From contig OZ244044.1 in NCBI GenBank assembly GCA_965215275.1, positions 1,856,001 to 1,920,000 on the forward strand: 64,000 nucleotides of DNA, in the 5' to 3' direction. The DNA comes from Thermodesulfobacteriota bacterium. GTDB taxonomy: Bacteria > Desulfobacterota_D > UBA1144 > Nemesobacterales > JAJCZQ01. The translations under genes were made by a program, and so were the position numbers. Under the pieces are notes generated by a model that saw only the letters and a program-made list of their open reading frames with translations, had not been told where the DNA came from and did not search any database. Every line of letters begins with the position of its first letter. The stretch's first letter is position 1. This document shows positions 42,474 through 62,517 of the stretch, one piece after another.

Positions 42474-42521
42474 TTATTGAACGTCTGCAAAGATCCAGTT
42501 GAAGTTCTGAGGTATGAATGA
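42474..42521 (+). pseudogene. 3' stub of a lolC/lolE-type permease gene
   Basis: Reads ...KDPVEVLRYE*, the typical LolC/E C-terminus, with a TGATG overlap into lolD. Confidence 0.7.
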
Positions 42522-43201
42522 TGAAAAACGTATTTGAGGTCGATGGTATTTACAAGACCTTTTCAAATAAGAAAAATAAAGTCGAAGTTTTAAAGGGAAT
42601 AACCCTTAATATACGCGATGGTGAAACGTTCGGTATACAGGGAGTATCAGGGGCCGGCAAGAGCACTTTACTGCATATACTGGGAACTTTAGAGAAACCA
42701 ACGGAGGGCAGGGTTCTGTTCGATGGGGTAGACGTCTTTAAGCATGATGACAAAGACCTGTCACGTATCAGGAACGAGAAGATAGGGTTCGTATTTTTGT
42801 ACCCCTATCTTCTTCCGGACCTAAATGCCTTGGAAAATGTTATGTTACACTGTTTGGCGAACGGAATGGAAAATAAAACAGCAAAGGAAAGGGCCTTGGC
42901 CATGTTGGAAAGGGTCGGTTTAGCAAATAAATCAAGCCATAAGCCAAGTGAACTGTCAGGTGGTGAACAGCAAAGAGTTGTAATTGCAAGGTCTGTTGTT
43001 TTAGGTCAAAAAGTAGTGCTTGCAGATGAACCGGTAGGTAACCTGGACTATAAAACAAAGATGAGTATAGTCGACCTCTTTTTAGGATTGAACGAGGAAA
43101 AAGGCATTACGTTCGTGATAATTACCTATAGCTCCAGGATATTTGACAGACTGAGCAGAAGGGCAATACTGTCGGATGGGAAAATAGTCGATGTTAACTA
43201 A
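42521..43201 (+). CDS. lolD: LolD-type ABC ATPase with degenerate Q- and H-loops
   Basis: GVSGAGKST, LSGGEQQRV and LADEP are present, but FVFL replaces FVFQ and ITYS replaces VTH. Confidence 0.85.
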   Translation: MKNVFEVDGIYKTFSNKKNKVEVLKGITLNIRDGETFGIQGVSGAGKSTLLHILGTLEKPTEGRVLFDGVDVFKHDDKDLSRIRNEKIGFVFLYPYLLPDLNALENVMLHCLANGMENKTAKERALAMLERVGLANKSSHKPSELSGGEQQRVVIARSVVLGQKVVLADEPVGNLDYKTKMSIVDLFLGLNEEKGITFVIITYSSRIFDRLSRRAILSDGKIVDVN

Positions 43202-43256: not shown

Positions 43257-43715
43257 TTTCGGATCAGGGGAACGACTGAGAGAATTAGAACAATATATTG
43301 CTAAAGCAAAAGAACAATACAAGGAAGCGACCCATGACTTTTACGGTTATATGAGGAAGCAATTGCAGACTTCGATAAAGTAGTAGAGATCGACCCGCAA
43401 GATATAAACTACTGTTACAGATGGATAGCAAATTCGGACAAGAGAAATAACTGAGAGAGATAGAACAAGATAAAGCCGCTGCAGGTTTAGAGCGTGCCGG
43501 CAGATTGCGGAAAAAAAGATATTTCGAAGAAGTTCGCTTAGTGTATACAGAAAATACTTTATGAACTCCTTAGCAGAGGTAACTGGCTGATCGGAGTATT
43601 AAATCCCGATCTTTTAGTTATGGTAAAAGAGTTCAAATTTTTTCAGACGATATAAACCTTCTGCAATTTGTACTGTATAATAGTCAGTAAAGGATACAAC
43701 TTTCAGATAATAAAC
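43257..43715 (+). pseudogene. 3' relic of a TPR paralogue plus the conserved TPR intergenic spacer
   Basis: Encodes ...EQYKEATHDFYGYMRKQLQTSIK*; the spacer matches the reverse complement of 57527-57865 and 56073-56317. Confidence 0.8.
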
Positions 43716-44556
43716 ATGGACAGATCAAATACCTTACCAGAACCAAGAGATGCAAAAGGATACTTTGAACGCGGAAAAGACTTTTTGAACAAAGGAGAGA
43801 TTCTAAAAGCCATTGATGATCTAGATGAGGCAGTCCACCTTAATCCCCAATTTGCAATAGCTTACTATCATAGAGGGCTTGCCAAAAATGAACTTGGACA
43901 ATATAAGAAAGCGATCGAGGACTTTGATAAAGCAATAGGGAGCAATTTCCCCCCCCCCTCGAGATACAGAAATCTACTACCGCAGAGGGCTTGCCAAATA
44001 TAAACTTGGGCAATACAGAGAAGCAATTAAGGAGTTTGACAAACTAATAGAGGTCTATCCGCAATTAATAAGAAGTTACCATCTCAGAGGGATTTTCAAA
44101 AAAGCACTTGGTCAACACAATGAAGCACTTAAAGACTTTGGCAAGGTCATAGAGATTAATCCGAAATTCACAAGAGACTACTATCATAAAGGGCTTGTCA
44201 AAAATGAACTTGGACAATACAAGGAAGCGGTCAAGTACTTTGACAAAACAATAAAGTTCTCACGATTTCCAAGAACTTGCCATCAAAGAGGGCGTGCCAA
44301 ATACAAACTTGGTCAATACAATGAAGCACTTAAAGATCTTGACGAAGCAATAGAGATTAATCCACAATTAACAGAAACATACTATGACAGAGGGTGTGCC
44401 AAATATAAACTTGGTCAATACAGAGAAGCGACCCATGACTTTTATCGTTATATGAGGAAGCGATTTTGCAAGATACAAAATCTTGCTATTACAAGGGTGA
44501 TAGCAAATTTGGGGAATTATATAGGAAAGTTGACAAAATCCCATAACTCACTTTAA
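43716..44556 (+). CDS. TPR protein A, frameshifted at C10 (43949-43958); 279 aa if the tract is C9
   Basis: MDRSNTLPEPRDAKGYFERG start; after the tract the +1 frame stays open (RDTEIYYRRGLAKYKLGQY...) to TAA 44556, which lies inside MITE-1b. Confidence 0.85.
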
Positions 44557-44957
44557 ATAGTTAACTTCTTTTATAAAAGGATTTACTTTAGAGGTTACTA
44601 CTGATTTAAACCTCTTATTCAGTTCTTCTTTAGGTGGTTTTTTTAAGTCGTTTGTGCGGGATTAGTTCCATTTTTAAAAACATCATTGATGCTTTATCTA
44701 TTGTTTGTTGTTTTTCTTTTTTTTGCTTTTAATTTTTTCATTATAAAACAAATAACTATTAAATATGATCAAGACTCCTCCATACTGTATTATCATTACT
44801 TAATTCTTCAAAGATAATAATTTTTCTTAACATACTGCTAAAAAGAGCATCCAATCGGTCTTGTGTGTCTGTTTTAACAACCATCATTTAACTTGAACGA
44901 AAATTCACCTATATACTTCTCAAATTGCTATTTTGTCAACTTTTCTATATAATTCCC
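44512..44957 (-). mobile_element. MITE-1b: internally deleted IS1595 derivative
   Basis: TIRs as in MITE-1a; reverse strand reads QFEKYIGEFSFKLNDG.../KTDTQDRLDALFSSMLRKIIIFEEL, an IS1595 transposase C-terminus. Confidence 0.85.
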
Positions 44958-44963
44958 ATAATT

Positions 44964-45180
44964 TTACTTATCTGTTAAATCCCTTGAAAGTTTCAAACTT
45001 GAAACTCCTTTAAGATTTGTTGTTAACAAGTAAACAGAGATAAGCCAAATCTGGAGTGGTAATTTGCTTTGCTCTAATATCGTCCCCTGTCTGATACTAA
45101 ATCTTTTTCTGCAATCCTTAATATTACCATAATATCAATTAGTCTTTTTGATTCTTTGGGTAATTAAGTATATATTCCCC
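44964..45180 (-). mobile_element. IS1595 relic: left end plus an N-terminal transposase fragment
   Basis: End GGGGAATATATACTTAATT at 45180; 45119-44964 reads KDCRKRFSIRQGTILEQSKLPLQIWLISVYLLTTNLKGVSSLKLSRDL. Confidence 0.85.
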
Positions 45181-45341
45181 TTAAATATCAAGATACTTAC
45201 TAAGGCATTAAATATATATAAAAGAGATTAATATAGGTAAACCTCTTTCAGCTATTCATCCTGTATTGGGAATAATATGACTCTAGCGGTGACCTGAAAC
45301 TTCTATTAAATGGTAAAGAATACACCTTTCGGAGAATAAAC

Positions 45342-46585
45342 ATGGACAGATCAAATACCTTATCAGAACCAAAGGATGCAAAAGGATACTTTGAACGCGG
45401 AAACGCGTTTTTGGACAAAGGAGAAGTCTTAAAAGCTATTGATGATCTGGATGAGGCGATTCATCTCAATCCCCAATTTGCAAGAGCTTACTTTAATAGA
45501 GGGCTTGCCAAAAATGAACTTGGACGATACAAGGAATCGATTGAGGATTTTTATAAAGCAATAGGGACCAATCCCCCCCCCTCCCCCATCAAGATGCAGG
45601 GTTTTACTATTGTAGAGCTGAATATTGTACAGGGCGAGAGCCTGTCAAAAACGAACCTAGGGAAACGATCAAAGACCTTGACAAAGTAATAGAGGTCTAT
45701 CCCCAATTTGCAAGAGCTTACCAACGTAGAGGGTTTGCCAATTATAAACTTGGGCAATACAGAGAGGCGATCAAGGACTTTGACAAAGTAATAGAGGTCT
45801 ATCCCCAATTTGCAAGTGCTTACTATCGTAGAGGACTTGCAAATTATGAACTTAGGCAATACAGAGAGGCGATCAAGGACTTTGGCAAAGCAATAGAGAT
45901 CTATCCCTATCCGCACCTTATAAGCCTTAACTATCAAAGAGGACTTACCAAAAATGAATTTGGGCAATACGAGAAAGCAACCAAAGACTTTGATGAGTCA
46001 AAATCCTACTATGACAGAGGGTGTGCTAAATGCAGGCTTGGGCAATACAAGAAAGCGATCGAATATTTTGACAAATCAATAGAGACCAACCCGAAATTAT
46101 CAGAAGACTACTTTACGAAAAAGTATGCCAAAAACAGACTTAAATACTACAAGTACATAATTACAGAAAATTACTATAACAGAGGACTTGCTAAAGTCAG
46201 GCTTATGCAATATAAAGAAGCGGTCGAAGACTTTGACAAGGCAATAGAGATCAATCCGCAATTAACAATAGCTTATTATAACAGAGGACTTGCTAAAGTC
46301 AGGCTTATGCAATATAAAGAAGCGGTCGAAGACTTTGACAAGGCAATAGAAATCAAACCGCAATTGGTAATAGCTTACAATGACAGAGGGTCTGCCAAAT
46401 ACGAACTTGGACAATATAAAGAAGCGGTCGAAGACTTTGACAAAGCAATAGAGATCAATCCGCAATTAACAATAGCTTACAATAACAGAGGACTTGCTAA
46501 AGTCAGACTTAGACAATACAAAGAAGCGACCCATGACTTTTACGGTTATATGAGGAAGCGACTGCAGACTTTGATAAAATGGTAG
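45342..46585 (+). CDS. TPR protein B, frameshifted at C9-T-C5 (45573-45587); 414 aa with one extra C
   Basis: Hand translation shows no stop in the downstream frame from 45587 into ORF 46205-46585; near-identical 102-bp TPR units at about 46178-46500. Confidence 0.87.
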
Positions 46586-46760
46586 AACCGACCTGCAAGA
46601 TGCAAAATCCTATACTGACAGAGAATTTGCTAAAACCCGACTTAGGCAATACAAAGAAGCAATTAAGGAATTTGACAAGGCAGTAGAAATTGATCCAGAT
46701 GAAGATCACAACTGCTATGAACGGGCAATTATGAAACTATGCCTGAGTGAATAGGAAAGT
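46586..46760 (+). pseudogene. Decayed TPR coding relic downstream of TPR B
   Basis: Reads DAKSYTDREFAKTRLRQYKEAIKEFDKAVEIDPD..., then an in-frame stop. Confidence 0.65.
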
Positions 46761-47207
46761 GCCAAAGCAGACCTGATCATTATTATAAAATGGTTTAATA
46801 TTGCCTGCTTTTTCCACGATGAGCATAAAAGCGTCACTGAATTAGAGAAAAGATTTAATGTTATACTGCAGGCAGAGATCAAGACGCTGCTGACCTGATA
46901 AGATGAAGATTGAAGATCAGGCGCAAAAGGATGCTTTGAACGCTGAGATGATAATTAAACAAAACCGGTGATTTTTAACCTCTTGAAAATTCCAAAGACA
47001 CCTTTACTTATCCCGCAAGTCTTTCACAGCTGAGGAGTTGCTGAAATAACCTTGTACAAGTTGTCAGCACGGATAAATAAAGCAGTCAGTTAAATGCAGC
47101 ATAAAGACTAAAAGATCTGAAAGTTAAGCATCTGACCTAACTTAGCTGCTGAAGGTATATGGCCTTAATTTATCTGTTAAAAAAGCTCTTTATGGTTTAT
47201 TATATTG

Positions 47208-47452
47208 GGGGACTATATACTTAATTATCCAAAGAGATCTAACTACTTGTTATCATTAACTTTTAATTTATTTTTAAGTTTTCTTGCCTTGATAATAGCT
47301 TTTTGTTTAGCAAATATAGCATCCACTACCTCTTCCATAGAAACTTTTACAGGCTGTATTAATTTTGGTTTTATTCCCATTTATCCCCCTCTCTCTTAAT
47401 ACTTAATATATCCCCTTTTTTGATTTTATGGGGAATTAAGTATATAGTCCCC
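47208..47452 (-). mobile_element. MITE-2: 245-bp non-autonomous IS1595 derivative carrying only a small ORF
   Basis: Perfect 19-bp TIRs GGGGACTATATACTTAATT; same end type as the transposase relic at 45180. Confidence 0.88.
47243..47380 (-). CDS. 45-aa basic IS1595 accessory peptide
   Basis: MGIKPKLIQPVKVSMEEVVDAIFAKQKAIIKARKLKNKLKVNDNK, preceded by RBS-like GAGGGGG. Confidence 0.65.
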   Translation of the reverse strand: MGIKPKLIQPVKVSMEEVVDAIFAKQKAIIKARKLKNKLKVNDNK

Positions 47453-47787
47453 TTAATTTTTGCCACTTCTTAAGTTTGTTTATAAGATTTGGGTTGTGAA
47501 TAAATTCTTACGGGTTCTCAATTCCTCACTGACTATTTTTGTAATTTTTCTACATTCATGTCCATCGTCAAAAAATACTCTGTTGCATCGTTATTTTGCT
47601 TAGTTTGTTTTTTATAAACTTGCAGTTCTCTATATGACTCAAAAGTCATTTTCTTGTATACAACAAATTTGCCAATTATAGATTGAGAAGTATCAGAGTC
47701 ATAACCCCAATTATGATTTTTATAATTTGACAATTTGTTATAGTTTAAGGAAAATTTATCTTCAATACAATTTACTTGGAGATAAAG

Positions 47788-48102
47788 ATGTTAGCTGTAA
47801 TCAAAACCTGCGGGAAGCAGTATATGGTTAAACCCGGCGATGTAATTAATGTTGATAAGATACAAGGGGAGCATGGGTCCGAAGTACAGTTCAGCGAAGT
47901 TCTCATGTTATCAGATGGAGAAGGAAGTGTGAAAGTAGGAACTCCATTTGTTGATGGCGCACTGGTTAATGGTATAATCCTTGGAGAGAAGAAGGGAGAG
48001 AAGTTAACCATATTTAAGTTCAGAAGAAGAAAAGGTTATAGAAAAAAAACGGGACACAGACAAAGATATACATCAGTTAAAATAAATAGTATTAACGGCT
48101 AA
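47788..48102 (+). CDS. rplU: 50S ribosomal protein L21
   Basis: [16 protein letters not shown] and GHRQRYT motifs. Confidence 0.97.
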
Positions 48103-48116
48103 ACCGGGAGGTTCTT

Positions 48117-48371
48117 ATGTCTACTAAAAAGGGTGGCGGCAGCACAAGCAACGGAAGAGACTCTGCCGGTAAAAGGTTAGGAGTTAAGAAATTCGGAGGT
48201 CAATCCGTTAGAGCCGGTAATATAATTGTGAGGCAGCGCGGTACGAAAGTTCATCCCGGTCCGAACGTCGGACTTGGCAAGGACTACACGCTTTTTGCAC
48301 TGATCGATGGTTCCGTTAAGTTCGAAAGATTCAAAAAAAATAAAACTAAAGTAAGTGTTTATCCCAATTAA
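48117..48371 (+). CDS. rpmA: 50S ribosomal protein L27
   Basis: [13 protein letters not shown] and [10 protein letters not shown] motifs. Confidence 0.98.
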
Positions 48372-48488
48372 GTTCCCCGTTTTTCACTTATTCCTCTACA
48401 AATTTAACCATTAGCGTATTCTTTCATTGTACGTACAATGTATAATATAATTAGTGTCAGGGTTTATCTGATACTAACGTGGGATTTT

Positions 48489-50042
48489 ATGAATACCAGA
48501 TCGGCTAAAGGTTATATTAAATTTTCGTTTTCATTGTTCATCACATTTTTGACATGTGTGATTATAGCTGTTGGCGTGGCTTTGTTTCACAGCCAGTACT
48601 TTGCCAATAAGATCATTGAATATAAGTCCTCCGAAATATCACAGGAGTTCAATAACTCTGACTCCCTTTCTCTTACTGCAAGGAATATGCTTCATAAGAG
48701 AGACGATATAAGCTACTTGAATATATTCAACGAAGAGGGTGTGTTACAAGAAAACTTTAGCATCGGCGATGCTGTCGGGACCAAAGAGGTTGTTTTAAAG
48801 TTATTTGACGGCCAATTTATAGGTTTGGGGTTAAGAACCGACGTGGTCCCACTCGTGGATTCCTATGCACTGTCTTGGAGTCTTATTATTGGTATAATTT
48901 CGGCTATTATTTTGCTCTTTATCATTTCAATCAGGGATTCAAAGGAGACCAAGCCGTTAAAGGAGTTTGAAAAAGCGATGGAAAGCATTTCTCAAGGTGA
49001 TTACACTGTCAGATTGGGCGGTTCTTTTCTTGGTCAAGATGGTAGTAAAAAAGATTATAACAGCACTTATATGATCTTTAATAAGATGGCGAGACATCTA
49101 TACGTAAAATACAGAGAGCGGAATATCTCTTATGTCCCGTCTATGGATGTACCACTTGAACTGAAAGAGAATAATGACCTTGATAATGGTGTGTCTGATA
49201 GCAGTTCAGAATTAGAATATAAATTAGAAGATGAACCAGAAGACACGAGTGCCGGACTTATTGGCCAGGAGTTTTTATTGGATGAAGGGAATAAGGACGA
49301 GGGATCTGAGGTGAAAGTGAAATTGGAGACTTCAGATATATCTACAGAACAAGATAACAATAATAACGGTGAGGTAATGGACCAAGTGGAAAAGACAGAA
49401 GACGACCTTGATGGACAAGAAATCCAAGAAGTCCCGAAAGAACCCGAGACTAGCGTGGAAGAAACAGTAAGACGTTCGTTTTTCGTCTCGGCAGTTGCCA
49501 AGTCGCATGAAGCACGTTCTGACTTGAGACATGTGAGCGTCCTTGTTGTTATAACAGAAGGTCTTGAGAATCTGCCCTGTGAAGAATATATGCAAAGTTT
49601 TTCAGAAATGATCGTAAGTTATGGAGGGAAGATAGACCATTCATTGCAAAGTGTGTTTGTTGCTGTTTTTAATCCTTCCGATGATAACTATCCATGTATG
49701 AGACCAATGTGTGCGGCGGTGGAAATATTAACAAAGCTTGCAGATACTGCGATAAGAAGCAAATCTGAAAACATGAAAACCGTGACCGGCAAAGTCGGTA
49801 TAAGCACAAAATCACTGTCCGATGTTTCAGATTCGCTTGAAGATTTGATAGAAGATGCCAAGCAGATCTGTGAGATTACACAGACTTGGAAGCTTTCAAT
49901 TTCCTCTGAGTTGTACGAAGAGGTAAAAGATTTTGTTGAAGCAAGGAAGTACACGGTTGATGGCAAGGATATTTATTCAGTTAAAGGTGTTGAGCATGGA
50001 GTGGTCCGTCCTGAAGGGAGACCTGAAAAAACCGACATGTGA
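48489..50042 (+). CDS. Membrane protein: two TM helices, HAMP domain, acidic linker and degenerate class III nucleotide cyclase domain
   Basis: KPLKEFEKAMESISQGDY...FNKMA (HAMP); RHVSVLVV, YGGKIDH and KVGIST form a cyclase scaffold without the catalytic Asp residues. Confidence 0.65.
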   Translation: MNTRSAKGYIKFSFSLFITFLTCVIIAVGVALFHSQYFANKIIEYKSSEISQEFNNSDSLSLTARNMLHKRDDISYLNIFNEEGVLQENFSIGDAVGTKEVVLKLFDGQFIGLGLRTDVVPLVDSYALSWSLIIGIISAIILLFIISIRDSKETKPLKEFEKAMESISQGDYTVRLGGSFLGQDGSKKDYNSTYMIFNKMARHLYVKYRERNISYVPSMDVPLELKENNDLDNGVSDSSSELEYKLEDEPEDTSAGLIGQEFLLDEGNKDEGSEVKVKLETSDISTEQDNNNNGEVMDQVEKTEDDLDGQEIQEVPKEPETSVEETVRRSFFVSAVAKSHEARSDLRHVSVLVVITEGLENLPCEEYMQSFSEMIVSYGGKIDHSLQSVFVAVFNPSDDNYPCMRPMCAAVEILTKLADTAIRSKSENMKTVTGKVGISTKSLSDVSDSLEDLIEDAKQICEITQTWKLSISSELYEEVKDFVEARKYTVDGKDIYSVKGVEHGVVRPEGRPEKTDM

Positions 50043-50069
50043 TCCCATCAGTGTGTTTGATCTTAAGCA

Positions 50070-51131
50070 ATGCAAATGCAAGTCCAAAACATTAAAGAGT
50101 TATCGCCGAACAAGCTTGAAGAAGCCATTCTGGATATTGGAGAAAAATCCTACCGTGCCGGTCAAATTGGCAGATGGCTTTATCAAAAATACATAAGTAA
50201 CTATGACGATATGACGGATTTATCCGTCGGGTTGAGAAACAAGCTACGAAATGTTCTTCCCATAAATAGAACCCTGCATCTGGTAAAGGAGCAACTGTCC
50301 CGGGATGGAACGATCAAATATCTTTTTATGCTCAACGACGGCAACAGGATTGAATCAGTCTTAATTCCTGATAAAAAAAGATTTACACTGTGTGTTTCTT
50401 CACAGGTTGGTTGTGCCCTTGGGTGTAAATTTTGCCTTACTGCAACCGTGAGAAGGATAAGGAATCTGAACACTGCAGAGATCATTGATCAAGTGTTGTA
50501 CGTGAATTCGGTTAGAAGTAAGCCGATTACAAACATTGTCTTTATGGGAATGGGAGAACCTCTGGATAATCTGGATAACCTTGTTAGCTCAATTCAAATA
50601 TTAACGGATAAAAGGTGCTTTGGAATATCTCCGAGGAAAATTACCGTGTCCACTTCTGGACTGGTTGATCAGATAGAGGAACTTGGAAAGAGGGTAAGCG
50701 TGAACTTATCCATTTCATTAAATGCGTCCAACGATGGAACAAGAAGCGATATAATGCCTGTAAACAAAAAATACCCGATCCGGCAGTTACTTACTGCTGC
50801 TGTTAAATATCCTTTGCCAAAGAGAAAACTGCTGACATTTGAGTATGTTTTACTTAAAGGCGTTAATGACTCCGATTTTGATGCGTCGGCACTTGCGGTC
50901 CTGTTAAAAGGTTTAAACGTTAAGGTTAACCTTATTCCCTATAACGAATCTCACCCTCTTCCTTACAATAGCCCTGACGCAGACAGAGTATTGAACTTTC
51001 AGAAAATACTTATGAATTCCCATATTAATGCAAAGATCAGGAAAAACAGAGGTAGAGATATTCTAGCTGCCTGCGGACAGTTGGCTTCGGGATATTCTCA
51101 TAACACTGTGTTTGAGAGGAACTGTTATTAA
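50070..51131 (+). CDS. rlmN: 23S rRNA / tRNA m2A methyltransferase
   Basis: CVSSQVGCALGCKFC, FMGMGEP and AACGQL motifs. Confidence 0.97.
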   Translation: MQMQVQNIKELSPNKLEEAILDIGEKSYRAGQIGRWLYQKYISNYDDMTDLSVGLRNKLRNVLPINRTLHLVKEQLSRDGTIKYLFMLNDGNRIESVLIPDKKRFTLCVSSQVGCALGCKFCLTATVRRIRNLNTAEIIDQVLYVNSVRSKPITNIVFMGMGEPLDNLDNLVSSIQILTDKRCFGISPRKITVSTSGLVDQIEELGKRVSVNLSISLNASNDGTRSDIMPVNKKYPIRQLLTAAVKYPLPKRKLLTFEYVLLKGVNDSDFDASALAVLLKGLNVKVNLIPYNESHPLPYNSPDADRVLNFQKILMNSHINAKIRKNRGRDILAACGQLASGYSHNTVFERNCY

Positions 51132-51146
51132 TTACTGACGGACGCC

Positions 51147-53795
51147 ATGCAAACAATGACTGGAAGTGAAATAAGAACCCTTTTTTTGGATTATTTTAAA
51201 AGCAAGGGACATATGGAAGTAAGTAGTTCTTCTTTAATTCCAAAGGACGACCCAACGCTTCTTTTTGTCAACGCGGGTATGGTGCAATTTAAAAATGTGT
51301 TCCTTGGAACGGAGAAAAGAGATTATAAACGTGCAGTTTCATCTCAAAAATGCGTGCGTGCAGGTGGAAAGCATAATGACCTTGACAACGTGGGATACAC
51401 TTCCCGTCATCACACATTTTTTGAAATGCTGGGCAATTTTTCATTTGGAGATTATTTTAAGAAAGAGGTCATTGAGTTTGGATGGGAACTTATTACAAGT
51501 GTATATGGGATAGCGGAAGATAAGCTATGGGTAACTGTATTTAAAGAAGACGATGAAGCATACGACCTTTGGAAGAACCATATAGGCATCAGTGACGGCA
51601 GACTGGTAAAGATGGGGGAGAGTGACAATTTCTGGTCAATGGCTGATACCGGACCGTGCGGTCCCTGCTCTGAGATCATTGTTGATCAAGGTGAGAGATT
51701 TGGCTGCGGAAAAAAAGATTGTAAAGTCGGATGTGATTGTGACAGATATCTGGAAATATGGAACTTGGTATTTATGCAGTTTTATAGAGATGATGCTGGC
51801 AATTTAACCAGACTTCCTAATCCGAGCATTGACACGGGGATGGGACTAGAGAGAATAGCGGCTGTGCTTCAGGCCGTAAAAAGCAATTACGAGACCGATC
51901 TTCTTCTTGAGATTATAGAAGATATCTCCGCGTTTTGTGGAACTGAGTACAAAAGAGGAACCAGTGAGAGTGATATTTCTATGAGGGTTATTGCAGATCA
52001 CTCAAGAGCGGTGAATTTTCTGATTTCCGATGGAGTATTTCCCTCTAACGAGGGTAGAGGATATGTTCTCAGACGAATACTGCGCAGAGCTGTAAGGCAT
52101 GCAAAAATGCTCGGGGTTGACAAACCGTTTCTTTACAAAACACTACCCAGCGTAAACAGGATATTCGGAGATGTCTATCCTGAACTTATAAAACGAGCGG
52201 ATTTTGTTTCACGAGTTGTTAGAACTGAAGAAGAGAGATTTCTGGAGACCATTGACCGTGGGCTTGAGCTTCTTGAGACTGAGGTAGCTGAACTTCAGGA
52301 AAGCAGTATCTTATCTGGAAAAGTAGCATTCAGGCTATACGACACTTACGGCTTTCCCTATGATCTGACAGAGGATATTACAAAAAGCAAAGGAATAAAA
52401 ATTGACTCTGCTGAGTTTAACCTGGCAATGAAGAAGCAGCGTGAACAATCAAGACAATCATTGAGGAAGACCGATGAGGGATTTACTGCCGGTTTATACG
52501 GAGACTTTGTCGCAGGAGGTTTGAGTGTTGATTTCACGGGCTATGAGCAGTTGGAGGGTCAGGCCCTGATTATGATGATAATAAATAACAATCAAGCTGT
52601 CGATAGTGCTTCTGAAGGAGACCTAGTGGAATTGATAACCGACTCAACGCCGTTTTATGGCGAATCCGGAGGACAGATAGGAGATAAAGGCAGGATAGAG
52701 TCCGGCAGGTTCAAGGGTGAAGTAGTTGACACGAAAAAACCGTTTACAGATCTTATAGTTCATAAAGTTAAGATAAAGAGAGGCACAGTATGGGTCGGTG
52801 ATAGGGTGAGTCTTATAGTGGACAAGGATTTCAGATCGGGAGTAAGTGCTCATCACACCTCCACGCATATACTTCACGCCACTCTTAAGGAAATACTTGG
52901 TGACCATGTAAACCAGGCAGGGTCGCTCGTAACCCCAGATAGACTGCGTTTTGATTTCAGCCATTATTCAGGGATAGAAAGTAAGGATTTAAGAAAGATA
53001 GAAGAGTTGATGAACGAGAGAGTGAGAACAGATGATGCCGTTGAAGTTCGTAGTAATATTCCATACGATGAGGCTATAAAGGATGGAGCCACGGCGATTT
53101 TTGAGGAAAAATATGGCGACAAGGTAAGAATTGTATCCATTGGAGATTATAGTAAGGAGCTTTGTGGTGGCACGCATTTATGCAGTTCAGGGGAGTCGGG
53201 ATTTATAAAGGTGATTAGTGAGGCGGCATCTTCAGCTGGAGTTAGGCGAATTGAAGCTGTAGCATCTGAATCTGCCGTAAAACTTTTCCATTACTACAAT
53301 AAAATAATTGAGAATGTAAGGTCTGAATTACAAGTTCCACATTCGCAGCTGATAAAGGGACTGAAAATGGTTGTTGATGAGAATGAGAGTCTGGTAAAGA
53401 AGTTGAAGAAATTTAAAGACCGTACTTTTTACAACGAGGTGGAAAGTTTTATAAAAAATGTTAAAAAAGTCAATGGTATAAAACTGCTCATCCAGGATAT
53501 AGAAGGTGCATCCGCGACGGATTTGAGAACCGTCTGGGACAGTGTTAAGCCAAAGATCTGTTCTGGTGTAACGGTCCTTGCGAGCAAAAATTCCGAGAAA
53601 GTTTTCCTGCTGGTTGGTGTTACAGAGGACCTTCTGGAAAAATATCACGCTGGTAATATTGTCAGGGAATTATCACGGATCGTTGGGGGGAAAGGAGGTG
53701 GAAAACCTGACCTTGCACAAGGTGGGGGAAGTATTACTTGTAAAATGAACGAAGCATTGGCGGCCGCTGGGGAAATAATAGAGGGAACATTTTAG
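51147..53795 (+). CDS. alaS: Alanine--tRNA ligase
   Basis: NAGMVQFK, HHTFFEMLGNFSFGDYFK, DTGMGLER, HTSTH...ELCGGTH and GGKGGGK motifs. Confidence 0.99.
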   Translation: MQTMTGSEIRTLFLDYFKSKGHMEVSSSSLIPKDDPTLLFVNAGMVQFKNVFLGTEKRDYKRAVSSQKCVRAGGKHNDLDNVGYTSRHHTFFEMLGNFSFGDYFKKEVIEFGWELITSVYGIAEDKLWVTVFKEDDEAYDLWKNHIGISDGRLVKMGESDNFWSMADTGPCGPCSEIIVDQGERFGCGKKDCKVGCDCDRYLEIWNLVFMQFYRDDAGNLTRLPNPSIDTGMGLERIAAVLQAVKSNYETDLLLEIIEDISAFCGTEYKRGTSESDISMRVIADHSRAVNFLISDGVFPSNEGRGYVLRRILRRAVRHAKMLGVDKPFLYKTLPSVNRIFGDVYPELIKRADFVSRVVRTEEERFLETIDRGLELLETEVAELQESSILSGKVAFRLYDTYGFPYDLTEDITKSKGIKIDSAEFNLAMKKQREQSRQSLRKTDEGFTAGLYGDFVAGGLSVDFTGYEQLEGQALIMMIINNNQAVDSASEGDLVELITDSTPFYGESGGQIGDKGRIESGRFKGEVVDTKKPFTDLIVHKVKIKRGTVWVGDRVSLIVDKDFRSGVSAHHTSTHILHATLKEILGDHVNQAGSLVTPDRLRFDFSHYSGIESKDLRKIEELMNERVRTDDAVEVRSNIPYDEAIKDGATAIFEEKYGDKVRIVSIGDYSKELCGGTHLCSSGESGFIKVISEAASSAGVRRIEAVASESAVKLFHYYNKIIENVRSELQVPHSQLIKGLKMVVDENESLVKKLKKFKDRTFYNEVESFIKNVKKVNGIKLLIQDIEGASATDLRTVWDSVKPKICSGVTVLASKNSEKVFLLVGVTEDLLEKYHAGNIVRELSRIVGGKGGGKPDLAQGGGSITCKMNEALAAAGEIIEGTF

Positions 53796-53837
53796 GCAAG
53801 ATATGGCGGAATGCTCAGTAAGTCCGAACAATCCCTG

Positions 53838-54740
53838 TTATAGGCTAACGTCTTTTATCCCTTGTTTACTTAAAACATCTTTAACTTTTTTTAAAGCTGC
53901 GATTTTAATTTGCCGTACTCGTTCGCGCGATATACCGTATCTCTTACCAATTTCCTCAAGTGTCAATGGATTATCGCTGAGAACATTATGTTTAATCACG
54001 TATTTTTCTCTTTTCTTTAGTGGCTTGAGTATTTCGTTGATATTTTCTCTGATAGCTGATTCAATCTGATTTTTGGCAATTAAATCTTCCTGATTATATT
54101 TTTCATCTTTCAGATAGTTTATAAAACTGGTTTGCTGGCCGTCTCCTATTTTGGCATCAAGGGAAAGGTCTTTATGGGTCATCCTCTGATCCATTTTTAC
54201 TACTTCTTCTACCTTTACCCCGAGTTGTTTTGCAATCTTTGAATAATCATCATCATTTATTACATTTGTTTCCTTACCAAGCGTGTTCTTAGTTGATCTT
54301 AACTTATAAAATAACTTTCGCTGTGCTTGATTTGTTCCTAATTTGACCAAGCTCCATGATTGTATAAGAAAATTATGTATATATGCTCTGATCCACCATA
54401 CTGCGTAGGAGATCAGTTTATATCCCTTTGTCGGATCAAATCCTTTTACGGCTTGCATGAGCCCTATGTTCCCTTCTTGTATTATGTCCATAATATTTAC
54501 GCCGTAGTTCTTGTACTCATGAGCAATTTTTACAACGAACTTGAGGTTGCAAGAGACAAGTTTTCTGGCGGCTTCAAGATCGCCTTCTGTCTTGTATCTC
54601 ATAGCTAACTCATATTCTTCTTTTCTGCTCAGAATTGGGTTGTTACTTATATCGGCTATGTATCTTTCAAGTGAATTAGTAGTTGTTGGAAGATTTGCTG
54701 AATAACTTTTTGTTTCTTCTTTTTCCCTGCTTTTCATCAT
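53838..54740 (-). CDS. rpoH: RNA polymerase sigma-32 factor
   Basis: Region 2 QEGNIGLMQAV..FDP, RpoH box QRKLFYKLR, region 4 SRERVRQI. Confidence 0.92.
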   Translation of the reverse strand: MMKSREKEETKSYSANLPTTTNSLERYIADISNNPILSRKEEYELAMRYKTEGDLEAARKLVSCNLKFVVKIAHEYKNYGVNIMDIIQEGNIGLMQAVKGFDPTKGYKLISYAVWWIRAYIHNFLIQSWSLVKLGTNQAQRKLFYKLRSTKNTLGKETNVINDDDYSKIAKQLGVKVEEVVKMDQRMTHKDLSLDAKIGDGQQTSFINYLKDEKYNQEDLIAKNQIESAIRENINEILKPLKKREKYVIKHNVLSDNPLTLEEIGKRYGISRERVRQIKIAALKKVKDVLSKQGIKDVSL

Positions 54741-54803
54741 GATGAATTTTAGATTCTTATCATAATCGTTTGGGAATTATATACAATAGTGACGAAGCCT
54801 GGA

Positions 54804-54992
54804 TTATTTCTTGTTTTTTGAACGTTCAGCAATGTGTTTCTTTACACCCTTCTTTTTAACATTGACAGGCTGGAGGATAGCTTTTGCTAACTTTTGCGGA
54901 GTTGTATAAATAGCAAACGGATGCTCTTTCTCTTCTTCTGTTGGTTCATAACTGCCTGGTAAGATCTCTGTTGTTTTTTTCTTATTCGTCAT
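54804..54992 (-). CDS. 62-aa basic IS1595 accessory peptide
   Basis: Intact ORF between the transposase and the right TIR; identical to 62093-62281. Confidence 0.65.
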   Translation of the reverse strand: MTNKKKTTEILPGSYEPTEEEKEHPFAIYTTPQKLAKAILQPVNVKKKGVKKHIAERSKNKK

Positions 54993-55046
54993 TGTAAGTT
55001 TATTTTATTTTTTTGGTCTGTTTTTTATCGTATAACATTATTCATC

Positions 55047-55959
55047 TTACCTTATCAGTTCTTTATAAGGCAAGATTTTTCCATACATTGCCTTTGCTAT
55101 TGTTCCCATCTGATCTTTCGTATCCAGTCTTCTTATATTATGCCTTCCCGCAAACTCATTTACATAACGATTTAAATGCTTTTTACTCATTCTGTGGAAT
55201 GTGCAGTTATATCCTCTTTTTAACATTGCCCAGAATGATACCACTCCGTTTACATATGCCTGCTCTTTAACATATTCCCTTACACTATGATTCACGCTTT
55301 CATGGTCATAAGGCAGCCCTGTATAGCTTTTATGATCATCGGTATATATTTTTACTCCCCGACCGACCTTCTTTACTATAAAAACCCTGTATTTCCTCTT
55401 TACTCCGTTCACCAACAAGTTGTGCTATCACTCTGTTTGTCTCTCCGTTCTTCATTCCTGTAACAATTGACTTCCCACCAGGCCCTCGTGTATGACTACG
55501 CTTGTCCTTATGTTTATTTCTCTCCTTTCCACCTGTAAACACTTTCAGTTCTTCTCTGTTCCATGCCTCTCTGATCCGATGCGATAAATGCCATGCTGTT
55601 CTCTGGGTAATATCCAGATCTCAATGCAGTTTCATACTTGATACTCCCTTTAATGACGTGGTAAATAGATATATAGCTACTGCCCAAACCTGATACTTGA
55701 TATTAGAGGACTGCATAACTGTCCTGATACTTACACTAAACCATTTTGCACATCCTTTTTCCCTGAACCTGTACGACATGGTCTTATGACCTATTCCAGT
55801 TTGAACGTTTCTTGTCCCACAATACGGACAAACGGGTTCCTTTCCCCACCTCTGTTCGGAAAACCATTTCTCTGCAACGGCATCGTCAGGAAATTTCTTG
55901 AATAAATTAACTAACGATATCCCTTTCCTGTATGATTTCCCATGTGCTTTGTTTGACAT
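55047..55959 (-). pseudogene. IS1595 transposase pseudogene
   Basis: Zn ribbon CPYCG; TGA after MKLH; the VExDETY segment is missing; frameshift before IYTDD. Confidence 0.9.
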
Positions 55960-56072
55960 ATAACTTCCTCCCAATTATTTAACTTTCTTACCTCTAATAC
56001 TGACAAAACTTTAGCTTTGTCAACTGTTTATTTGGAGACTTCGTCACTATTGCATATAATCCCCATTTTTAT

Positions 56073-56470
56073 ATAATTAAAAAGTCGGGCTTTTTAATCC
56101 TCTAATCAACCAGCTACTTCTGCTACGGAGTTCGTAAATGTTCTCCGTATACATTAAATAAACTTCTCAGAAATCTCTTTTTTCAGCAATCTGTCGGCAC
56201 GCTCTAAACCTGCAATGGCTTTACCTTGTTCTAGTTCTCTCAGTCGTTCTCCCAATCCGAATTTTCTATTCCCTCTGTAACAGTAGGTTTCTACATCTAC
56301 ATCTTGCAGGTCGGTCTCTACCCTTTTATCAAAGCCTGCAATCGCTTCCTCATATAACTGTAAAAGTCCTGGGTCGCTTCTTTGTATTGTCTAAGTCTGG
56401 CTTTGGCAAGTCCTCTGTTATAATAAGTTTTTGCATCTCGCGGATCTATCTCTATTGCTTTGTCATAGTC
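56073..56470. repeat. Direct repeat of TPR 3' end plus spacer (partner 57621-58018)
   Basis: Offset 1548 bp; about 200 nt from 56221 look identical to the sequence from 57769. Confidence 0.9.
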
Positions 56471-57526
56471 CTTAATCGCTTCCGTGTATTGACCAAGTCC
56501 GCCTTTGGTATTTCCTCTGTTATTGTAAGTTTCTGCAATCGCTTCCTTGTATTGATTAAAGTTTTTTTCGGCAAAAAATCTGTTGTTAAAGTAATTTCCT
56601 GCTAATTGAGGATCAAGTTCTGTGGTTTTGTCAAAGTCTTTAATTGCTTCTCTGTATCGTCTAATGTAGGTTTTGGCAAGTCCTCTGTTATAGTAAAGGT
56701 TTGCAATCGCTTTCTTGTATCTACCAAGGTCTTTTTTGGCAAACTTGCTGTTAAAGTAATCTCCTGCGAATTGCAAGTCGGTCTCTATTGCTTTGTCAAA
56801 GTCTTCGACCGCTTCCGCATATTGACCAAGTTCATGTTTGGCAAGCCCTCTATTATAGCAAACTCTTATAAACTGTGGATAGACATCTATTGCTTTGTCA
56901 AAGTCTTCGACCGCTTCCGCATACTGACCAAGTTCATGTTTGGCAAGCCCTCTATTATAGCAAGGTTTTGCAAATCGCGGGTCGATCTCTATTGCTTTGT
57001 CAAAGTCCTTAATTGCTTCCTTGTATTGACCAAGTCTGTTTCTGGCAAGCCCTCTGTTATGGTAATATCTTGCAAATTTCGGATGGACTTCTATTGCTCT
57101 GTCAAAGTCCTTAATTGCTTCTCTGAATTGCCCAAGCCTAAAATTACCAAGCCCTCTACTGTAGTAGAGTTCTGTATATTGTGGGGGGAGAGATTTAGTC
57201 CCTACTGCTTTGTAAAAGTCCTTAATCGCTTCCTTGTATTGACCAAGTTTGTTTCTAGTAAACCCTCTATTATAGTAAGCTCTTACGAATTGCGGGTCGA
57301 TCTCTATTGCTTTGTTAAAATCCTTGACCGCTTCCGCATACTGACCAAGCCTGTTTCTGGCAAGCCCTCTGTTATGGTAAGCTCTTGCAAATTGGGGATC
57401 AAGATGGATCGCCTCATCTAGATCATAAACAGCTTTTACGACCTCTCCTTTGTTCAAAAAGTCGTTTCCGCGTTCAAAGTATCCTTTTGCATCCTTTGGT
57501 TCTAATAATGTATTTGATTTACCCAT
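56318..57526 (-). CDS. TPR protein D (402 aa), in frame through a short C6 tract
   Basis: 34-aa repeats YxNRGLAxxxLGQYxEAxxDFxKAIExxP; G6 on the + strand at 57183-57188. Confidence 0.93.
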   Translation of the reverse strand: MGKSNTLLEPKDAKGYFERGNDFLNKGEVVKAVYDLDEAIHLDPQFARAYHNRGLARNRLGQYAEAVKDFNKAIEIDPQFVRAYYNRGFTRNKLGQYKEAIKDFYKAVGTKSLPPQYTELYYSRGLGNFRLGQFREAIKDFDRAIEVHPKFARYYHNRGLARNRLGQYKEAIKDFDKAIEIDPRFAKPCYNRGLAKHELGQYAEAVEDFDKAIDVYPQFIRVCYNRGLAKHELGQYAEAVEDFDKAIETDLQFAGDYFNSKFAKKDLGRYKKAIANLYYNRGLAKTYIRRYREAIKDFDKTTELDPQLAGNYFNNRFFAEKNFNQYKEAIAETYNNRGNTKGGLGQYTEAIKDYDKAIEIDPRDAKTYYNRGLAKARLRQYKEATQDFYSYMRKRLQALIKG

Positions 57527-57865
57527 GTTTATTATCAGAAAGTTGGATTCTTTACCAACTACTATACAGTAACAATTGCAGAAGGTTTATATAGTCTGAA
57601 AAAATTTGAACTCTTTTACCATAATTAAAAAATCGGGCTTTTTGATACTTCAATCAGCCAGTTACCTCTGCTACGGAGTTCGTAAACGTTCTCCGTATAC
57701 ATTAAACAAACTTCTTATAAATCTCTTTTTTCAGCAATCTGTCGGCACGCTCTAAACCTGCAATGGTTTTACCTTGTTCTAGTTCTCTCAGTCGTTCTCC
57801 CAATCCGAATTTTCTATTCCCTCTGTAACAGTAGGTTTCTACATCTACATCTTGCAGGTCGGTCT

Positions 57866-60800
57866 CTACCCTTTTATCAAAGCCTGCAATCGCTTCCTCA
57901 TATAACTGTAAAAGTCCTGGGTCGCTTCTTTGTATTGTCTAAGTCTGGCTTTGGCAAGTCCTCTGTTAAAATAAGTTTTTGCATCTCGCGGATATATCTC
58001 TATTGCTTTGTCATAGTCCTTGATCGCTTCTTTATATTGCATAAGCCTGACTTTGGCAAGCCCTCTGTTATTGTAAGTTTCTGCAATCGCTTCCTTGTAT
58101 TTACCAAGGTCTTTTTTGGCAAACTTGTTGTTAAAGTAATCTCCTGCGAATTGCAGGTTGATCTCTATTGCTTTGGCAAAGTCTTTAATTGCTTCTCTGT
58201 ATCGCCTAATGTAGGTTTTGGCAAGTCCTCTGTTATAGTAAGCTTCTGCAATCGCTTTCTTGTATTTACCAAGGTCTTTTTTGGCAAACTTGTTGTTAAA
58301 GTAATCTCCTGCGAATTGCAGGTTGGTCTCTATTGCTTTGTCAAAATCCCTGATCGCTTCCGCATATTGACCAAGTTCATGTTTGGCAAGCCCTCTATTA
58401 TAGCAAACTCTTATAAACTGTGGATAGACATCTATTGCTTTGTCAAAATCCTTGATTGCTTCCGCATATTGACCAAGCTTATGTTTGGCAAGCCCTCTGT
58501 TATAGTAAGTTTTTGCAAATCGTGGGCTGATCTCTATGTCTTTATCAAAATCCTTGATCGCTTCCGTGTATTGACCAAGGCTGTTTTTAACACGTCCTCT
58601 GTTATAGTAAGCTCTCGCAAATTTCGGATAGATATCTACTACTTTGTCAAAGTCCTTGACTGCTTCCTCATACTGACCAAGTTTAACTTTACCAACCCCT
58701 CTGCTGTAGTAAAGTTCTGTATATTGGTGGGGGGGGGGGTATTGGTCCTTATTGCTTTGTAAAAATCTTGGGTCGCTTCCTTGTATTGACAAAGTTTGTT
58801 TCTAGTAAGCCCTCTGTTATAGTAAGCTCTTACGAATTGCGGGTCGATTTCTATTGCTTTGTTAAAATCCCTGACCGCTTCCGCATACTGCCCAAGCCTT
58901 TTTCTGGCAAGCCCTCTGTTATAGTAAGCTCTTACGAATTGCGGGTCGATTTCTATTGCTTTGTTAAAATCCCTGACCGCTTCCCCATACTGCCCAAGCC
59001 TAAAATTACCAAGCCCTCTGTTATAGTAATTTTCTACAATTGCTTTCTGGTATTGCCCAAGCCTTTTTCTGGCAAGCCCTCTGTTATAGTAAGCTCTTGC
59101 AAATTGCGGGTCGATTTCTATGGTTTTGTCAAAATCCCTGACCGCTTCCGCATATTGACCAATCCTGTTTCTGGCAAGCCCTCTGTTATAATAAGCTCTT
59201 ACGAATTGCGGAGACATCTCTATAGCTTTGTTAAAATCCTTGACCGCTTGCGCATATTGACCAATCCTGTTTCTGGCAAGCCCTCTGCTGTAGTGGAGTT
59301 CTATTTCTTGTGAGAGGTGAAATTTGCTCCCTATTGCTTTGTCAAACTCCTTAATTGCTTCCTTATATTGACCAAATTTGTTTTTGGTAAGTCCTCTTTC
59401 ATAACAAATCCAATAGATACGTTCTGCAAATCCCGGATTGAGTTTTATTGCTTTATTAAGATCCTCAATTGCTTCCTCATATTGACCAAGGCTGCTTTTG
59501 GCAAGCCACCTGTTATAATAAACGCAAGGATAGAATATATCCTCAAATTGGGGATTGATCTGTATTGCTTTGTCAAAATCCTTGATCGCTTCCTTGTATT
59601 GTTCTTTTGCCTTAACAGTATCTTGTTCTAATCTTCTCAGTTGTTCCCCTAGTCCTAATTTGCTATCCCCTCTGTCATAGTAGGATTTTGCATCTTGTGG
59701 ATTGATCCTTATTGCTTCGTCAAAATCTTTAATCGCTTCCTCGTATTGCTCAGATTTTAATTTGGTATTTCCTCTGCTATAGTAACTTTCTGCATTTTGC
59801 GGACCGATCTCTATCACTTTATCAAAGTCCTTGATCGCTTGTTGGTAGCATCCAAAGTTGTATTTTGTAATTCCACTGCTGTAGTAGACTTCTGCATTTT
59901 GCGGACCGATCTCTGCCACTTTATCAAAGTCTTCAATAGCTTCTTCTAAATTTTCATCCCAGTTCTCAACCTCCTGCTTACATGATCCAAACAAAGCTCT
60001 GGCAAGTCCTCTATTATAGTAGGCTTCTTCATCTTGTGGGTTTATCTCTATTGCTTTGCTAAAGTCTTTGATCGCTTCCTCATATTGACCAAATAAAATT
60101 CTGACACGCCCTCTGTTACAACGGGATTCCGTGTCTTGAGGAGCCACCGTTATTAATTCGTCAAAATCTTCGATCACTTCTCCGTGTAACTCAAGCAAGT
60201 TCTTGGTAACCTTTCTACCAGCGTGGGCAAACAGATATTTCGGGTCGACTTCTATAACTTTGTCAAAATCCTCAATCGCTTCTTTGAGTCTCCCAAGGCT
60301 GCCTTTGGCACGTCCTCTTTCATAATAATAGTGAAAATCCACAAATTGTGGTTTGTTTTTTATGACTTTATCAAAGTCCTTGACCGCTTCTTTGTATTGC
60401 CCAAGTTCGTTTCTAGCAAGCCCTCTGTTATAGTAAGCGCCTATTAATTGCGGATTGCTCCCTATCGCTTTGTTAAAGTCCTTAACCGCTTCTCTGTATT
60501 GTTTAATGTAGGTTTTGGCAAGTCCCCTGCGATTCCAAGACTCTGCATCTTTCGGGTTGATCTCTATGGCTTTGTTAAAATCCTCAATTGCTTCTTTACA
60601 TTGCAAAAGTTGGGTTTTAGCAAATCCTCTGTCAGTGTAGTTTTTTGCATCTTTCGGGTTGATCTCTATGGCTTTGTTAAAATATTCAATTGCTTTATCG
60701 TATTGCTCAAGTTTGACCGTGGCAATCCCTCTGTCAGTATATGCTCTTGCAAATTGGGGATCAAGATGGATCGCCTCATCTAGATCATAAACAGCTTTTA

Positions 60801-60888
60801 CGACCTCTCCTTTGTTCAAAAAGTCGTTTCCGCGTTCAAAGTATCCTTTTGCATCCTCTGGTTCTGATAAGGTATTTGATCTGCCCAT
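57866..60888 (-). CDS. TPR protein C, frameshifted at C11 (G11 at 58729-58739); 749 aa as read, 1007 aa with C12
   Basis: ORFs 58639-60888 and 57866-58792 overlap at the tract; the TPR register resumes as HQYTELYYSRG. Confidence 0.9.
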
Positions 60889-61125
60889 GTTCTCCGGAAG
60901 TTTGACTCTTTACCACCTAATACAAGTTTCAGGTCACCGTTAGAGTCATATTATCCCAATACAGGATGAATAGCTGAAAGAAACTTACCTAGATTACTCT
61001 GTATATACATTTAATGCATTGGGGATTATATACAATAGTGACGAAGTCTCCAAATAAACAGTTGACAAAGCTAAAGTTTTGTCAGTATTAGAGGTAAGAA
61101 AGTTAAATAATTGGGAGGAAGTTAT

Positions 61126-62038: not shown

Positions 62039-62092
62039 GATGAATAATGTTATACGATAAAAAACAGACCAAAAAAATAAAATAAACTTACA

Positions 62093-62281: not shown

Positions 62282-62517
62282 TCCAGGCTTCGTCACTATT
62301 GTATATAATTCCCAAACGATTAATACTTGTCTAGTGTAATCTTTAAAGTATAACACCAGATAATTGTTTATGAAAATTATGTATTTTTGTCCACATAAAA
62401 GTTTTATTTGATGAGAAAAACCCATAAACTTGATGGGCATGCTTGTCCTCAAATCAACTATCAAAGTTTCTTGACTGACTACTTTTTAACATTTAAACTA
62501 ATCCACTTTGACGCAAG

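Follow-up and report, generated by a model that had tools for sequence, protein, structure and literature searches.

Probable slipped-strand phase variation at a homologous poly-C tract in a TPR gene family of an uncultured bacterium

The TPR genes and their origin

The window, the whole 64,000-nt stretch of DNA analysed here, comes from the ~2 Mb genome (99.9% complete) of an uncultured bacterium and contains four TPR genes, designated A to D, among the following features.

42518..43201, + strand: LolD-like ABC ATPase copy, 227 aa, preceding a TPR array; Q-loop and H-loop altered
43300..43560 (approximate), + strand: 3' end, decayed, of an earlier TPR unit
43641..43715, + strand: region upstream of A with a TATAAT-like box, common to most family members
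43716..44003, + strand: gene A, current OFF product 95 aa, two TPR_1 stretches
43949..43958, + strand: C10 tract of gene A
43960..44556, + strand: post-tract frame of A, 198 codons, four TPR_1 stretches
45342..45689, + strand: gene B, current OFF product 115 aa
45573..45587, + strand: C9-T-C5 tract of gene B, bridged without gaps by contigs of four runs
45590..46585, + strand: post-tract frame of B, 331 codons, six TPR_1 stretches
46617..46895, + strand: remains of the ancestral final TPR and C-terminal cap, out of frame behind B, 77% identical to the intact copy, one stop
54763..56065, - strand: IS1595-type element with a fragmented transposase, repeated in inverted orientation at 61020-62322
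56318..57526, - strand: gene D, in frame, 402 aa, eight TPR_1 stretches
57183..57188, - strand: tract of D, short and interrupted (TCTCT-C6), in frame
57866..58726, - strand: post-tract frame of C, 286 codons, 80% identical to that of D
58639..60888, - strand: gene C, current short product 749 aa, 15 TPR_1 stretches
58729..58739, - strand: C11 tract of gene C, bridged without gaps by contigs of two runs
59308..59322, - strand: second loop copy within C, fully interrupted, in frame and without a run: TTTCACCTCTCACAA
61020..62322, + strand: the other IS copy, 1303 nt in length and 100% complementary to the first (54763-56065)

The tandem 34-residue repeats belong to the TPR superfamily, PF00515 scoring above the Pfam cut-off in all five segments scanned. 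Genes C and D are flanked on both sides by the IS pair (54763-56065 and 61020-62322), which was labelled IS1595-type from its likeness to a PF12762 ORF at 62717 and from its end motif. Four copies of the LolD-like ABC ATPase adjoin TPR arrays and a fifth (C1:249333) has normal motifs; dN/dS among the five was 0.21-0.33. A promoter may lie in the family's shared upstream region (43641..43715), where the TATAAT-like box was not above chance in a promoter scan.

The initial annotation had described A, B and C as broken at one homologous loop and D as in frame, and all of its coordinates and tract lengths were right, as were the products of 279, 414 and 1007 aa that A, B and C would give if in frame. 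The open downstream frames, put at about 200, 330 and 290 codons, measured 198, 331 and 286, and the internal loop copy of C, said to have no run, was borne out at 59308-59322, in frame. The four paralogues stand, but the family is bigger, with 12 leader copies and nine loop-bearing genes genome-wide, five of the latter beyond A-D. The six in-frame copies had a loop of 15 nt and the four OFF ones had loops of 16, 17, 20 and 20 nt; the interrupted short loop of D and the one inside C were both in frame. Like D, the member at C1:20505 is naturally in frame. The frame offset was +1 in A and +2 in B, C and the copy at the fifth locus. The loop is homologous throughout, so that the tract family is to be counted as a single origin.

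All nine loop genes, ON or OFF, stop at or just past a common out-of-frame junction (EATxDFYxYMRKR...). The claim that the tract is the only frameshift in A, B and C holds up to the present end of the family, where this shared junction lies. On sequence comparison, the junction evidently removed the ancestral C-terminal cap in all loop-bearing members; the cap is intact in the gene at C1:1750466, with relics behind B and C1:1069233. Decayed relics occur within the TPR family. The cap is 55% and 48% identical to those of the two FRG-TPR proteins of this genome, and 57 of the 120 best protein-database matches to the post-tract part of B carry FRG. The FRG domain (PF08867) was found in two other genes of this genome and was absent from the families listed for the A-D segments (the best 25 listed for C and D); A-D have no space for it before the first repeat. 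The arrays probably come from FRG-TPR proteins minus the FRG domain, and the family leader probably derives from a conserved single-copy TPR gene of 236 aa.

Frame states, selection and tract lengths

Among homologous loci of the family both ON and OFF states were found, since four of the family's eight long tracts are in frame and four out of frame, these being paralogues and not alleles. Other features expected of contingency loci were also present: 1) a C/G run of at least 8 lies inside the coding frame and 2) the tract length alone sets the frame, the downstream sequence being otherwise intact. No stop occurred in the 1,064 post-tract codons of the four OFF genes, whereas about 26 would be expected under neutral evolution since each diverged from its nearest paralogue. 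Their post-tract dN/dS values were 0.67, 0.61, 0.39 and 0.52, below 1 at p<0.05 in three of the four genes, the exception being gene A (p 0.12). These values are fairly high. The lack of stops and dN/dS of 0.39-0.67 agree with the view that the downstream sequence is unlike pseudogene decay, although a recent one-way break would fit the intact frames as well. The tracts have been kept at 9-11 pure C between paralogues with dS of 0.24-0.93, with both gains and losses.

Tract lengths were compared in contigs of seven of the 14 listed sequencing runs (X1, X3-X8). The X1 contigs carried the OFF lengths of B and C without gaps at 125x and 133x (single copy 127x) and the X4 contigs at 488x and 471x (single copy 608x). 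A single out-of-frame length of B was found in X1, X3, X4 and X8 and a single one of C in X1 and X4, with no second length at either; X1, X3 and X4 are three samples of one study and possibly the source data, X8 is from another study at 2.5x, and near-identical sequence is present at low depth in X5 and X8, which may not be independent. The sequence of a 97%-identical strain leaves the B and C tracts uncovered. Since k-mer contigs carry them at near single-copy depth, the out-of-frame lengths of B and C are not assembly errors, and homopolymer error, which the initial annotation had named as grounds for refutation, is ruled out for these two genes. The majority tract states of B and C did not differ between runs. 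Single lengths neither show nor exclude mixing, because contigs drop minor alleles.

The A tract was bridged by no contig among the matches listed. A gap of one base was present at 43947 in an X4 contig and at 43948 in an X8 contig, but neither was taken as an allele: the X4 contig fits, and probably belongs to, the C1:1069233 paralogue, which is one T shorter, and the X8 contig has 12 further differences and a loose end resembling the paralogues C1:20505/31786, its likely source. The reduced X4 depth across B and C (488 and 471 versus 608) was too large for the few tract-spanning words and was not used. No in-frame allele of A, B or C was found, the protein database held an in-frame allele of neither A nor B (identity at most 49% and 42%), the TPR loop pattern had no matches in the JGI scan and none of 100 other genomes of the order had a close copy of the family.

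The TPR tracts are eight of 139 C/G runs of at least 8 in the genome. Runs of length 5 to 11 numbered 787, 78, 0, 6, 68, 32 and 18, with none of 7 and a peak at 9-10; A/T runs were never longer than 9. There were 133 C/G runs of at least 9 against ~0.3 expected genome-wide by extrapolation from lengths 4-6, an excess that is not chance. Of the 139 tracts, 49% have length 9 and 23% length 10; for Campylobacter tracts the figures are 53% and 26% (PMC6321876). A frame break coincided with 12 of 21 mid-gene C/G runs of at least 8, versus 10 of 134 A/T runs of at least 8 (Fisher p 4e-7), and A/T runs of 8-9 were broken no more than background.

Forty-eight S8-protease-like surface genes carry a C/G tract at their 5' end, and many DNA methylases have one too. 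The S8 genes are OFF in 44 of 48 cases (two read ON if the ATG is taken four bases upstream), yet 44 of 48 are unbroken from tract to membrane anchor. The 139 tracts occupy ~110 loci, with a two-tract arrangement that would act as an AND gate on 28 surface pseudo-proteases, the S8 catalytic-residue calls being made at regex level with many genes missed. Among 76 S8 tracts, length differed in 3/8 pairs with identical 60-nt flanks and in 17/25 pairs with one or two flank mismatches, the pairs not being independent; judged from these alignments, S8 tract length evidently changes faster than point substitution. An orthologous methylase tract is C13 in this genome versus C9 in genome G001, OFF in both. 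An order-wide DNA search with the window's methyltransferase matched only G000 (1 of 101 genomes), and the nine JGI matches to the S8 leader pattern, none with a C run, were taken as chance. A mutator background was rejected, mutS and mutL being intact, as was a demand of the protein for poly-proline, since CCC is used least of the Pro codons and runs of at most 5 suffice for 63 of 85 PPP motifs.

Slipped-strand switching and its alternatives

The family is probably subject to slipped-strand phase variation, a known mechanism with an unusual cargo. The poly-C run, situated at a single proline turn in a TPR gene that has been duplicated, would form a reversible switch: replication would add or remove one C, toggling A and B between a two-TPR stub and products of 279 and 414 aa and C between 749 and 1007 aa, and a copy whose run is interrupted, as in D and in the loop inside C, would stay locked ON. 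Cells would thereby differ in which short and long TPR proteins, probably cytoplasmic, they contain. The ON/OFF or length switching proposed initially is the best reading, although no second length appeared at B or C in any run, and it is strengthened by the genome-wide tract signature, the mixed states, the intact post-tract frames and the exclusion of assembly error at B and C.

It is rather unlikely that the tract is instead a one-way hotspot, with A, B and C being young pseudogenes of dispensable duplicates fixed by drift in a small population, for which slippage-driven gene loss in Sodalis offers a comparison (PMC4948707). The identical OFF length in every run bridging B and C would be accounted for, as would the relics, shared old truncation and IS copies that surround the family and dN/dS of up to 0.67. 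However, decay predicts neither the retention of 9-11 pure C over dS of 0.24-0.93, with gains and losses, nor the absence of length-7 runs, nor the same device in 48 surface genes and methylases.

Recoding, in which the RNA polymerase slips or the ribosome shifts frame on the C run so that a fixed DNA sequence yields both products, is very improbable: half of the copies are in frame, A is offset by +1 but B, C and the copy at the fifth locus by +2, near-identical paralogues differ in DNA length and transcriptional slippage is known mostly at A/T runs, even though the majority lengths are fixed in the runs compared and the downstream frames intact. That the genes are actually intact and misassembled can practically be dismissed, being refuted for B and C by gap-free contigs in X1 and X4 (for B also X3 and X8) and disfavoured by the A/T runs of 8-9, not broken above background, despite A being bridged by no listed contig and X1-X4 possibly being source data.

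Possible function and comparison with known systems

Given slipped-strand switching, the products may, tentatively, be effector-less binding modules in intracellular conflict with phages or mobile elements, which might, for example, modulate the two intact FRG-TPR proteins or act as their decoys, cell-to-cell variation then serving as a bet-hedge. FRG is a potential anti-viral effector/NADase of the ART family (PMC9503650). PADLOC gave only weak generic TPR matches for the family.

It is doubtful that, again given switching, the products are eukaryote-like host-interaction factors that leave the cell by lysis, in vesicles or by some unrecognised route. A TPR protein does figure among the ELP classes of sponge symbionts that were assayed for phagocytosis escape (PMC13747020), an H. 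pylori TPR gene had its intragenic tract altered on mouse adaptation (PMC5381349), and the large surface family of the same genome is switched by the same device. However, the products have no signal peptide, as initially noted (the sequence has no hydrophobic leader), and no membrane segment; the type VI, III and IV markers VipB (PF05943), FHIPEP (PF00771) and VirB4-type (PF03135) had no match in the 99.9% complete genome, where HlyD (TIGR01843) was below cut-off; and the arrays trace to FRG-TPR proteins, not to secreted eukaryote-like proteins. The host-interaction role suggested at first is therefore poorly supported. It is conceivable, if unlikely, that in this Dadabacteria-type bacterium a homopolymer switchboard ranking with the largest on record (139 tracts, ~110 loci) has been extended inward to effector-stripped TPR sensors of FRG-TPR origin, which would be intracellular decoys or regulators of the cell's own anti-phage machinery, each cell having a random set.

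The loop series, in which the run is pure, has expanded again after interruption or is interrupted and held in frame, would show a switch arising from a TPR proline turn and then lost, and the existence of deep reads (X4, ~600x) makes switching at all 139 tracts directly testable.

The Campylobacter poly-G/C contingency loci catalogued with PhasomeIt are alike in having intragenic G/C homopolymers that peak at 9-10 with mixed ON/OFF states, and they also target methylases and glycan-modifying genes (PMC6321876). H. pylori fliP (PMC11394524) and the C8 tract of group A Streptococcus mga (PMC10330708) resemble the family in their mid-gene, coding-strand poly-C frameshift, mga giving length variants as proposed for gene C; both are described as single genes with measured reversibility, whereas here one tract is spread over paralogues. 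The H. pylori TPR-family gene UM032_0224, turned pseudo by an intragenic homopolymer change (PMC5381349), is likewise a single gene. No poly-C switching TPR family was found in searches of the open literature. The FRG-TPR and TIR-TPR proteins (intact FRG-TPR genes number two in this genome and are also present in G002) have a TPR array and C-terminal cap homologous to those of the switched family, which, unlike them, has no FRG or TIR domain, a borrowed leader and, in its loop-bearing members, no cap. Cpn1054/ppp of Chlamydia pneumoniae and pilC/opa of Neisseria likewise have a slippery tract that is homologous among the paralogues of each family, but these are membrane or surface proteins of pathogens with the tract near the 5' end. 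To our knowledge, homopolymer phase variation has been studied almost only in pathogens and in surface or methylase genes; here its signature is seen on a larger scale, in an uncultured lineage whose mismatch-repair genes are intact, and reaches proteins that have no export signal.

Tract-bearing TPR genes

Recomputation of the four TPR paralogues, A to D, gave the tracts, frames and open post-tract stretches described in the initial annotation.

Gene A, start 43716, + strand: C10 tract at 43949-43958; 95-aa product at present, then 198 open codons in the other frame
Gene B, start 45342, + strand: C9-T-C5 tract; 115 aa at present, then 331 post-tract codons
Gene C, start 60888, - strand: C11 tract at 58729-58739; 749 aa at present, then 286 post-tract codons
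Gene D, - strand: TCTCT-C6 tract, in frame; 402 aa

The hypothetical in-frame products of A, B and C, computed as 279, 414 and 1007 aa, agreed with the corrected lengths proposed there. All segments of A-D matched as TPR arrays in a profile search, and the C-run was located in the turn between two repeats, which was G-S/T-N/K-x-P-P-P in the tract unit versus I-D/N-P-Q in ordinary units. The source genome, G000 (1.99 Mb, single contig, 99.9% complete), in which the window is C1:1856001-1920000, had the leader in 12 genes and the loop in 9. Between fixed anchors the loop was 15 nt in six in-frame copies (four with C9-C10, interrupted D and the interrupted internal loop of C), while the out-of-frame (OFF) loops measured 16 nt in A, 17 in C, 20 in B and 20 in the copy at C1:1964984 (G000 position).

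The family copies form small tandem arrays, four of which follow a LolD-like ATPase copy (window 42518-43201; C1:18008, 33331 and 1964018). The four ATPase frames were open with dN/dS of 0.21-0.33, the Q- or H-loop was altered in several, and no permease adjoined them. Two identical, inverted 1303-nt IS copies (54763-56065 and 61020-62322) flank C and D and have a common outer 8-nt flank, inverted rather than direct in orientation, which a third IS copy (C1:1923980) lacked. The C-D cassette could invert by recombination.

Tracts elsewhere in the genome

C/G runs of 5 to 14 in G000 numbered 787, 78, 0, 6, 68, 32, 18, 6, 5 and 2, respectively, with two longer ones, of 17 and 26, so that 139 runs of 8+ were observed versus about 2 expected. 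Of the 133 runs of 9+, 103 had their C's on the + strand; most S8 genes (an S8-protease-like surface family) were also on this strand, all around the chromosome. G000 ranked first of 101 genomes of the order for runs of 9+ (133), followed by 130, 113, 75, 53 and 43, while genomes of its own taxonomic family had 21, 3, 0 and 0, possibly undercounted in fragmented genomes. Both mutS and mutL were intact in G000. Relatives of its AlaRS bore the labels Deltaproteobacteria (67%) and Thermodesulfobacteriota (57%), the latter a phylum that includes Candidatus Dadabacteria, and we take the lineage to be Dadabacteria-type.

Most runs of 8+ were in the S8/P-domain family, which has a signal peptide and a C-terminal membrane tail. 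The family core was found in 58 frames, 48 of them with a promoter and one (n=20) or two (n=28) tracts in the first codons (for example, L014:1199-3283 and L014:15582-18842). Only 4 of the 48 were ON (6 if another start is taken in two genes) and 44 were OFF; 44 of 48 were unbroken as far as the membrane anchor, and tract length was often unequal between near-identical leaders. A single frame traversed the spacer in all 28 double-tract genes, an arrangement that would be an AND gate, provided that translation starts at the first ATG. Three single-tract genes had their first tract fused directly to post-second-tract sequence, as if the 70-nt spacer had been deleted between runs. The catalytic His and Ser were replaced in most genes where the motif patterns matched.

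Other tract genes are presumably DNA methylase/restriction, SAM methyltransferase, sulfotransferase-like and lipoprotein genes, the labels coming partly from characteristic motifs. The SAM methyltransferase at window 29805-30515 was in frame (ON) across C9 at 30007-30015, and two paralogues (C1:558385 and 1844265) were out of frame. Four short paralogous ORFs, which we take to be YkvA-like, were interspersed among methylase genes and tandem duplications (L013, C1:832440-837314). Many runs in two other genomes of the order, G011 and G001, were poly-G tracts within lipoprotein-gene promoter spacers (20 stretches examined each), located between TTGAC[AT] and TA[GA]AAT upstream of paralogous genes (L132-L151 and L017-L036) in spacers often of 15-16 nt versus the usual 17. 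Three G000 lipoprotein paralogues (C1:94069, 1295437 and 1301357) had G9-G10 inside the ribosome-binding region.

Probable switching and its alternatives

Reversible slipped-strand switching at the TPR tracts is the probable explanation. Replication slippage, by gain or loss of one C, would give A and B either as a two-repeat stub or as the full array, and C as a protein of 749 or 1007 aa; interrupted runs would lock copies ON. The tracts, frames, mixed states and intact frames, all observed, as were the hypermutable lengths of S8 paralogues, support the ON/OFF or length switching claimed initially; however, no second tract length was found in any run bridging B (X1, X3, X4, X8) or C (X1, X4), and no in-frame allele in the protein database, a JGI scan or 100 other genomes of the order.

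Downstream of the tract, the four OFF genes had no stop in 1,064 codons, where neutral evolution after divergence from the closest paralogue would have given about 26; dN/dS there, a check suggested in the initial annotation, was 0.67, 0.61, 0.39 and 0.52. The frames were thus used through most of their history; current use does not follow. One-way hotspot decay at the tract, with which a single fixed length is compatible, is improbable. Recoding at the C-run without DNA change, which would leave one DNA length, is more doubtful still.

Assembly error at homopolymers is scarcely credible and was rejected at B and C, since gap-free Logan contigs, taken as accurate-read evidence (X1-X4 are sequencing runs of one study, possibly the assembly's source data), confirmed the out-of-frame lengths, and frame breaks occurred at 12/21 mid-gene C/G runs of 8+, compared with 10/134 A/T runs of 8-9 and a C/G5 background of 20/494. 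The B tract was bridged with zero differences or gaps in X1 (124.8x), X4 (487.5x), X3 (17.3x) and X8 (2.5x), and the C tract in X1 (132.9x) and X4 (470.5x), the single-copy depth being 126.7x in X1 and 607.5x in X4; most accurate words therefore carry the out-of-frame length. For A, position 43948 was covered in X3 and X5, with neither indels nor a bridging piece among the matches listed.

Origin and possible role

Judged from sequence matches, the arrays appear akin to FRG-TPR proteins (FRG domain plus TPR array) and the leader to a 236-aa single-copy TPR gene, which it matched and which is also present in G001 and G002. A tract-free member (C1:1750466) has a C-terminal cap that shares 55% and 48% identity with the two FRG-TPR proteins encoded by G000, and FRG occurred in 57 of the best 120 database matches, a ranking by a score that favours long arrays. 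The nearest DNA among the 100 other genomes of the order was in two G002 genes, one TIR-TPR and one FRG-TPR, both free of C runs. Each of the nine loop genes terminates at, or a little beyond, one common old out-of-frame junction, and the lost cap persists as a relic, with further breaks, behind B. The only gyrB match in G000 fell within a single open frame of 1252 aa, counted from the first Met, which also has a long TPR array at its N-terminal end (L176, C1:845132-848941).

No export signal was visible in the TPR family, and a profile search of G000 gave no type III, IV, VI or HlyD-type export markers over the cut-off, so a cytoplasmic role is more likely than the host-facing one suggested initially. 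Given switching, we favour effector-less binders in intracellular conflict, tentatively, over host-interaction factors, which are unlikely.

The TPR tracts have the structural features of contingency loci. The mechanism is already known; what is new is the cargo, the paralogue-wide tract with its origin at a TPR turn, and how large the tract set is in this lineage.
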